64,000 nt of DNA from Escherichia coli (GTDB lineage: Bacteria; Pseudomonadota; Gammaproteobacteria; Enterobacterales; Enterobacteriaceae): the NCBI RefSeq assembly GCF_003334335.1, contig NZ_QOWQ01000003.1, one strand, 5' to 3'. Positions 47,182 through 47,460 of the stretch are shown in pieces. Numbering within the stretch: position 1 is the first letter of the stretch; each line of letters begins with the position of its first letter. The translations under genes were made by a program, and so were the position numbers. Under the pieces are notes generated by a model, which had not been told where the DNA came from, made no database searches, and worked only from the letters and a program-made list of their open reading frames with translations.

Positions 47182-47352
47182 CCAGCTATTTACGATATAT
47201 ATCGATACATAATTTTATTTTTTTCATAAAACGCAGAAACAGTGACCATGTGCACAACGCCACCCGACGGCTGTAATAACAAAAAATCCCTTGATGCCTG
47301 TCCCTTTTGTTACACTCCGTTATCACGCACAAGAGATATGCAGGACACTGGT

Positions 47353-47460
47353 ATGCCGACTAAACGCTTTGATAAAAAACACTGGAAGATGGTGGTGGTG
47401 CTACTGGCAATCTGTGGCGCTATGTTGTTGCTACGTTGGGCAGCAATGATTTGGGGCTGA
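47353..47460 (+). CDS. yniD: Small membrane protein YniD (35 aa)
   Basis: ORF track reports a 72-aa frame from 47242; the 35-aa product MPTKRFDKKHWKMVVVLLAICGAMLLLRWAAMIWG has a single hydrophobic helix. Confidence 0.6.
   Translation: MPTKRFDKKHWKMVVVLLAICGAMLLLRWAAMIWG

Follow-up and report, generated by a model that had tools for sequence, protein, structure and literature searches.

A longer in-frame reading frame over the Escherichia coli small membrane protein gene yniD most probably reads an island edge and the yniD promoter

Introduction

Several small single-pass membrane proteins of E. coli that modulate larger membrane proteins have been characterised, among them MgtS, AcrZ, CydX and MgrB. 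For the small membrane protein YniD we know of no partner, phenotype or regulator, and two papers that name its gene have thrS or an IS2 insertion as their topic, not the function of the protein. RefSeq annotates the gene as yniD, encoding "small membrane protein YniD" (WP_001142445.1; b4535, at 1805165..1805272 in MG1655). The protein is mentioned in a 2025 review (PMC12529367) as having been detected by mass spectrometry in Treitz et al.

We analysed a stretch of 64,000 nucleotides of E. coli DNA (contig NZ_QOWQ01000003.1 of assembly GCF_003334335.1), here called the window. A mechanical list of its open reading frames contains a GTG-initiated frame of 72 amino acids on the + strand, MTMCTTPPDGCNNKKSLDACPFCYTPLSRTRDMQDTGMPTKRFDKKHWKMVVVLLAICGAMLLLRWAAMIWG, of which the RefSeq annotation covers only the last 35 codons. 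An earlier note on this DNA had described yniD as hidden in this longer frame, had taken the C-terminal 35 residues with one transmembrane helix to be the plausible product, and had left it unclear whether the Cys-rich part upstream is ever translated.

Results

The annotated gene and its protein

The features of the locus are collected in Table 1. The yniD gene of the window is identical to that of E. coli K-12, and the whole region under study has 100% identity to E. coli K-12 and BL21. When the 72-residue frame was compared with the NCBIfam equivalog profile NF041491 (membrane_YniD), it scored 82.9 bits (cutoff 40). Residues 39-72 aligned with the complete model (positions 1-34 of 34), and the first 37 amino acids of the frame had no match in this comparison. 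Homologues of YniD also carry Pfam PF28032 in the precomputed assignments of the protein database. The sole hydrophobic helix of the 72-residue frame (residues ~50-70, with a hydropathy peak of 2.32 over the 19 residues 52-70) lies inside the YniD part. The product favoured in the earlier note thus stands, with the family match restricted to residues 39-72 and with the purifying selection and the conserved Met-Pro start and Shine-Dalgarno (SD) sequence that are described below.

Table 1. Coordinates of the features at the yniD locus (positions in the window).
Feature	Position	Strand	Basis or remark
espL1/arpB pseudogene	45282..45755 and 45766..47181		Two frames; ends at 47181; adjoins yniD upstream
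Right flank of the espL1/arpB island	47182..47295	+	blastn boundary, alignment
Mechanical 72-aa ORF	47242..47460	+	GTG 47242; in-frame ATG 47248 two codons on
Second transcription start site (K-12, RegulonDB)	47289	+	64 nt before ATG
Putative extended -10 element TTTTGTTACACT	47305..47316	+	TG 47308-47309; hexamer TACACT 47311-47316
Transcription start site (EDL933, Cappable-seq)	47324	+	29 nt before ATG, 7 nt past the hexamer; +/-1 nt
Shine-Dalgarno AGGA	47342..47345	+	7 nt before ATG 47353
yniD CDS, 35 aa + TGA, MPTKRFDKKHWKMVVVLLAICGAMLLLRWAAMIWG	47353..47460	+	RefSeq, NF041491, dN/dS
Predicted transmembrane helix, YniD residues ~13-33	47389..47451	+	Hydropathy
GC-rich hairpin	47480..47504		Between convergent yniD and ydiY; followed by a + strand T run, 47511-47514
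ydiY	47513..48271	-	Convergent with yniD
pfkB	48555..49487		Neighbour of ydiY

The N-terminus of YniD has a net charge of +4 and is followed by a helix of 21-23 residues; by the positive-inside rule YniD would be a single-pass inner membrane protein with its N-terminus in and its C-terminus out. From Escherichia to Pantoea the helix and the KHWKM and LRWAAMIWG stretches are nearly invariant. We infer from this near-invariance that a specific partner is involved rather than a generic membrane anchor, which suggests that YniD would bind a larger membrane protein, as other small single-pass proteins do.

The part of the long frame upstream of YniD contains four Cys among its 37 residues, and its description in the earlier note as Cys-rich (CTTPPDGCNN...CPFC) was accurate. 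A zinc-binding Cys-rich domain (Pfam zf-like PF04071) was considered for this part and rejected, as the match was not significant (i-Evalue 0.07, 13.5 bits) and Cys20 is not conserved. The ORF tool by design begins a frame at the first ATG, GTG or TTG after a stop codon. When the upstream 300 nt were shuffled, at least 37 in-frame codons were open in 8% of the shuffles, and the upstream opening is therefore unremarkable. The open frame back to GTG 47242 is due to chance, and it is mechanical ORF calling that makes yniD look like a gene within a longer one. RefSeq nowhere annotates the long frame.

Selection acts on the 35 codons of yniD

The two parts of the frame were compared across 80 loci that encode YniD relatives, with one genome per species, and across nine further E. 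coli strains besides the window. In the 35 codons of yniD the differences fall mostly at third codon positions and dN/dS is 0-0.05. Between K-12 and Escherichia sp. MOD1-EC7003 there are three differences, all of them synonymous. Between K-12 and E. albertii the differences at codon positions 1, 2 and 3 number 1, 1 and 15 (dN/dS 0.006), and against Citrobacter, Enterobacter, Kluyvera, Lelliottia and Yokenella dN/dS is at most 0.05 or the synonymous sites are saturated. At 45 loci, which range from Escherichia to Pantoea and Rahnella, the Met-Pro start (Val in Pantoea) and the SD sequence are conserved. Among 5417 complete E. coli genomes, 5406 hold the 108-nt coding sequence at an identity of at least 99%.

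The same threshold is reached by the upstream 111 nt in 1581 of the 5417 genomes. Within the sampled E. coli strains, polymorphisms in this part are nonsynonymous and synonymous in the ratio 7 : 1 when read in the long frame, and Cys20 is replaced by F or R in some strains and is lost in E. albertii. Eight of the other E. coli strains aligned have the frame open and retain GTG 47242, the exception being IHE3034; the in-frame ATG 47248 is restricted, among the sampled strains, to the K-12/B lineage and reads AGG in the others. The nearest sister lineage, MOD1-EC7003, has 21 substitutions in the upstream part (10, 6 and 5 by codon position) together with a 1-nt insertion; its GTG has become CTG, and an in-frame TAA lies 23 codons before the yniD ATG. 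In E. albertii the upstream substitutions are distributed 13, 12 and 12 over the codon positions and are accompanied by several indels. Across the 45 loci, other genera mostly have an in-frame stop 1-25 codons upstream of yniD, and at loci with a longer upstream frame the "peptide" is unrelated to that of E. coli.

Conservation of the 37 upstream codons across Enterobacteriaceae had been named in the earlier note as bearing on whether they are translated. The comparison gave no codon-like constraint on them, with stops and indels in the closest relatives, and the comparative part of the pattern that the note had listed as speaking against a longer product is what we find, namely purifying selection confined to the 35 codons (dN/dS 0-0.05) and upstream 111 nt that evolve like non-coding DNA. 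Judged by these substitution patterns, the upstream 111 nt are not coding.

Several variants of this almost invariant gene were seen. In E. coli E09 (L006, positions 499-585) codon 29 of yniD is changed from TGG to TGA, and a YniD of 28 amino acids is annotated, a rare truncation. At the locus of Citrobacter sp. NCU1 (L026, position 2501) the start codon of yniD is ATT, not ATG, with the SD sequence and the coding frame intact; a non-canonical start, an error in sequencing or inactivation of the gene could each explain this. In an 82-aa protein from an NCBI contig (P0001), part of yniD is duplicated in tandem and fused with the upstream frame (MPTKRF...AIC-NNKKSLDACPFC...MPTKRF...); a faulty assembly or a duplication specific to that strain is the probable explanation. 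Two of the ~5440 matches to the region in complete E. coli genomes are plasmid-borne, and 9 of 5426 such genomes had no match to it.

A conserved promoter-like element lies within the longer frame

Of 53 Enterobacteriaceae loci, 50 have the pattern TGnTAnnnT 37-45 nt before the yniD ATG (0.03 expected by chance). Information content in the aligned loci is ~2 bits at the T, TG, TA, A, C and T of TtTGnTAcACT and ~0 in the flanks, and in the Escherichia alignment the block TTTTGTTACACT is invariant amid diverged DNA. In the long frame this DNA is read as TGT CCC TTT TGT TAC ACT and translated as C-P-F-C-Y-T; the "CPFC" or CxxC look of the longer product thus arises because TG-rich DNA of the putative promoter is read as codons.

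Two distances between a transcription start site (TSS) and the start codon of yniD have been published. Cappable-seq of E. coli O157:H7 EDL933 gave 29 nt (PMC10469882, Supplementary Table S5), and RegulonDB v10.5 gives 64 nt for K-12 (tabulated in the same supplementary table). The EDL933 site was transferred to the window by sequence identity, the stretch being identical in the O157 strain F1273 and in K-12. Its position 7 nt past the hexamer, inside the 5-9 nt range expected of an extended -10 promoter, taken together with the conservation, leads us to propose that TTTTGTTACACT would be the yniD promoter, with the TSS table coming from a different strain. We found no convincing -10 element for the 47289 TSS. 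GTG 47242 and ATG 47248 lie 111 and 105 nt before the yniD ATG, beyond both TSS distances, and neither of the reported yniD mRNAs therefore holds the upstream starts.

Sites of the CRP, PhoP and CpxR types were looked for by eye in the conserved block and set aside, as the spacing of the half-sites does not fit. SELEX peaks listed under "thrS/yniD" were also discarded, since their positions are in the thrS-arpB spacer and not at yniD. Rfam gave no RNA family in 46900-47800, and folding of the leader and mRNA was unremarkable (z-score -0.53). Loci of Pantoea and Erwinia (L068-L084), which have a GTG start, carry a conserved GC-rich leader hairpin, GATGCGCC-N4-GGCGCATC, ~25-50 nt upstream of that start and downstream of a -10-like element TAGAAT/TAGACT; this Pantoea-type hairpin could be a clade-specific leader structure.

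Translation start signals

The duplex with the anti-SD sequence was calculated as -4.0 kcal/mol at ATG 47353, and an SD sequence of the AGGA, GAGG or GGAG type is kept before yniD across genera. At GTG 47242 and ATG 47248 no SD pairing was found (+0.2 kcal/mol each). A further in-frame ATG at 47338 gave -0.7 kcal/mol.

The upstream sequence derives in part from the edge of an espL1/arpB island

The gene espL1/arpB (type III effector-like, with ankyrin repeats) is present in the window as two frames and is annotated as frameshifted in K-12. The window segment 44810-47295 that contains it behaves as an inserted island. Escherichia lineages such as E. whittamii and strain E69, as well as Citrobacter, are without espL1, and in them thrS and yniD are divergent neighbours ~300 nt apart. 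In blastn comparisons of the window with two island-free loci (L007 and L012), the alignment ran up to 44809 and began again from 47296/47297. Because homology to island-free DNA resumes only there, the long frame begins within the right flank of the island, which supplies its GTG, its ATG and approximately its first 18 codons. The long frame is a chance fusion of island flank (47242 to ~47295) with ancestral promoter and leader DNA (~47296-47352), and it exists only where the island is present.

In E. coli IHE3034 an IS1 element 57 nt upstream of the ATG cuts the long frame, and the promoter block and an identical yniD are kept. The IS1 junction in this locus (L088, positions 346-457) corresponds to window position 47296, where homology to island-free loci resumes; this may be coincidence or reflect a preferred insertion or junction site. 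The MOD1-EC7003 locus (L009, positions 2192-2315) contains espL1 remnants that match window positions 45971-46010 and 47073-47123, and it also keeps the last 24 bases of espL1 (a 3' block from window position 47158). Most of an island once present in this lineage has apparently been lost.

In the island-free loci L007 (2360-2500), L054 (2372-2500), L061 and L010, an open frame of 47-58 codons precedes yniD and has a conserved-looking sequence, LxVYT...QSxN...YDxNQ. It occupies the place of the expected divergent thrS promoter and leader (thrS starts at 2200, with a TSS reported ~163 nt upstream), and the conservation of this peptide therefore probably reflects regulatory DNA.

The interval from espL1 to yniD gave no predicted terminator on the + strand. 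On the other side of the gene, the hairpin between yniD and ydiY is likely to be a bidirectional terminator common to both genes. YdiY, whose gene is acid-inducible, was found by tblastn in 55 loci and PfkB adjoined it in 54; the remaining locus, L010, ends inside ydiY. Neighbours named by eye from ORF translations in Rahnella (an MFS transporter, recD-like) and in Pantoea (OsmC-like, lldD-like and a CPBP-type membrane protein) gave no consistent functional hint.

Discussion

yniD is an already known gene whose start is correctly annotated. We consider it very likely that the locus makes one product, the 35-residue YniD, and that the 111 nt upstream consist of the island edge and the yniD promoter and leader and do not code for protein. 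Transcription would be driven by the extended -10 element TTTTGTTACACT and begin ~29 nt before the ATG, the AGGA sequence would recruit ribosomes to ATG 47353 for synthesis of the 35-residue protein, and transcription would end at the hairpin that is shared with the convergent ydiY.

An additional long isoform specific to E. coli, of 72 amino acids from GTG 47242 or, in K-12, of 70 from ATG 47248, would be made at a low level by read-through from espL1 and would give YniD a cytoplasmic, possibly metal-binding extension with four Cys at its N-terminus. If it existed, it would be a de novo N-terminal extension caught at birth, created in E. coli sensu stricto when the espL1 island was inserted. 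Its frame is open and the GTG is retained in sampled E. coli strains, and the upstream starts could be present on transcripts that run through from espL1, since the interval from there to yniD has no predicted + strand terminator. Older annotations with long forms (a 42-aa partial form in E. coli and a 63-aa form in E. albertii) and the marginal zf-like match (i-Evalue 0.07) also agree with it. However, neither start has an SD sequence, both reported TSSs lie downstream of them, ATG 47248 is AGG in other strains, and RefSeq nowhere annotates this form. The codons themselves behave in the same manner: some E. coli strains have F or R in place of Cys20, nonsynonymous polymorphisms outnumber synonymous ones seven to one, and the nearest sister lineage has an interrupted frame. 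We therefore regard the long isoform as very improbable. As far as sequence evidence and the published TSSs reach, a negative answer to the question of whether the 37 upstream codons are translated is supported.

A shorter extension, of 40 residues from ATG 47338 (MQDTG-MPTKRF...), does not share the transcript problem, as this codon is downstream of both TSSs, is present on both reported mRNAs and is invariant in the sampled E. coli. Its SD sequence is weak or absent (-0.7 kcal/mol), and an mRNA with the 29-nt leader would have no more than 14 nt ahead of it. MOD1-EC7003 has ACG in place of this codon, E. albertii and other genera do not have it, and NF041491 begins at the Pro that follows Met 38; initiation at this ATG is thus very unlikely. 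The ORF list also contains a frame of 52 amino acids in the +1 frame (47291..47449, + strand, TTG or ATG start) that overlaps almost all of yniD and could be read as a hidden gene, and the -64 transcript begins right beside its start. A family match, an SD sequence and support from conservation are all lacking. Moreover, the substitutions in the 105 nt that the two frames have in common are at third positions of yniD codons, a pattern incompatible with constraint on a second frame, and we give a gene in this frame next to no chance.

The single-product reading, with the 35-residue YniD alone, bears out the present annotation of yniD and shows why the longer frame ought not to enter it. The locus also serves as an example of a pitfall, in which promoter DNA rich in TG passes for a CxxC motif when translated in frame, and mechanical ORF calling carries a small gene back into its own promoter. 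The sharply conserved putative extended -10 element, which matches a published TSS, is a modest addition that could be used to study the expression of yniD.

Compared with described systems, the protein of the window is the type member of the YniD family, identical to K-12 YniD without any difference and with ydiY and pfkB adjoining; the 37 upstream in-frame codons are outside this family. The putative promoter resembles the sigma-70 extended -10 (TGn) class in its TRTGn, in the A at position 2 and the T at position 6 of its hexamer and in a TSS 7 nt downstream. It has no recognisable -35 element, and its hexamer TACACT agrees with TATAAT at four of six positions. A scan for paired -35/-10 hexamers gave no + strand promoter, which is consistent with the -35-independent class. 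As for the longer frame, it has in common with the N-terminal proteoforms found by initiation-site ribosome profiling that in-frame start codons lie upstream of the annotated start in an open frame. Unlike the starts of those proteoforms, the upstream starts here have no SD sequence, are not conserved and are upstream of the mapped TSSs, and the codons that follow them evolve like non-coding DNA. YniD has no sequence relationship to MgtS, AcrZ, CydX or MgrB, but it is like these proteins in its size of at most 50 amino acids, its single helix, its short charged N-terminus, which would be cytoplasmic, and its strongly conserved helix face.
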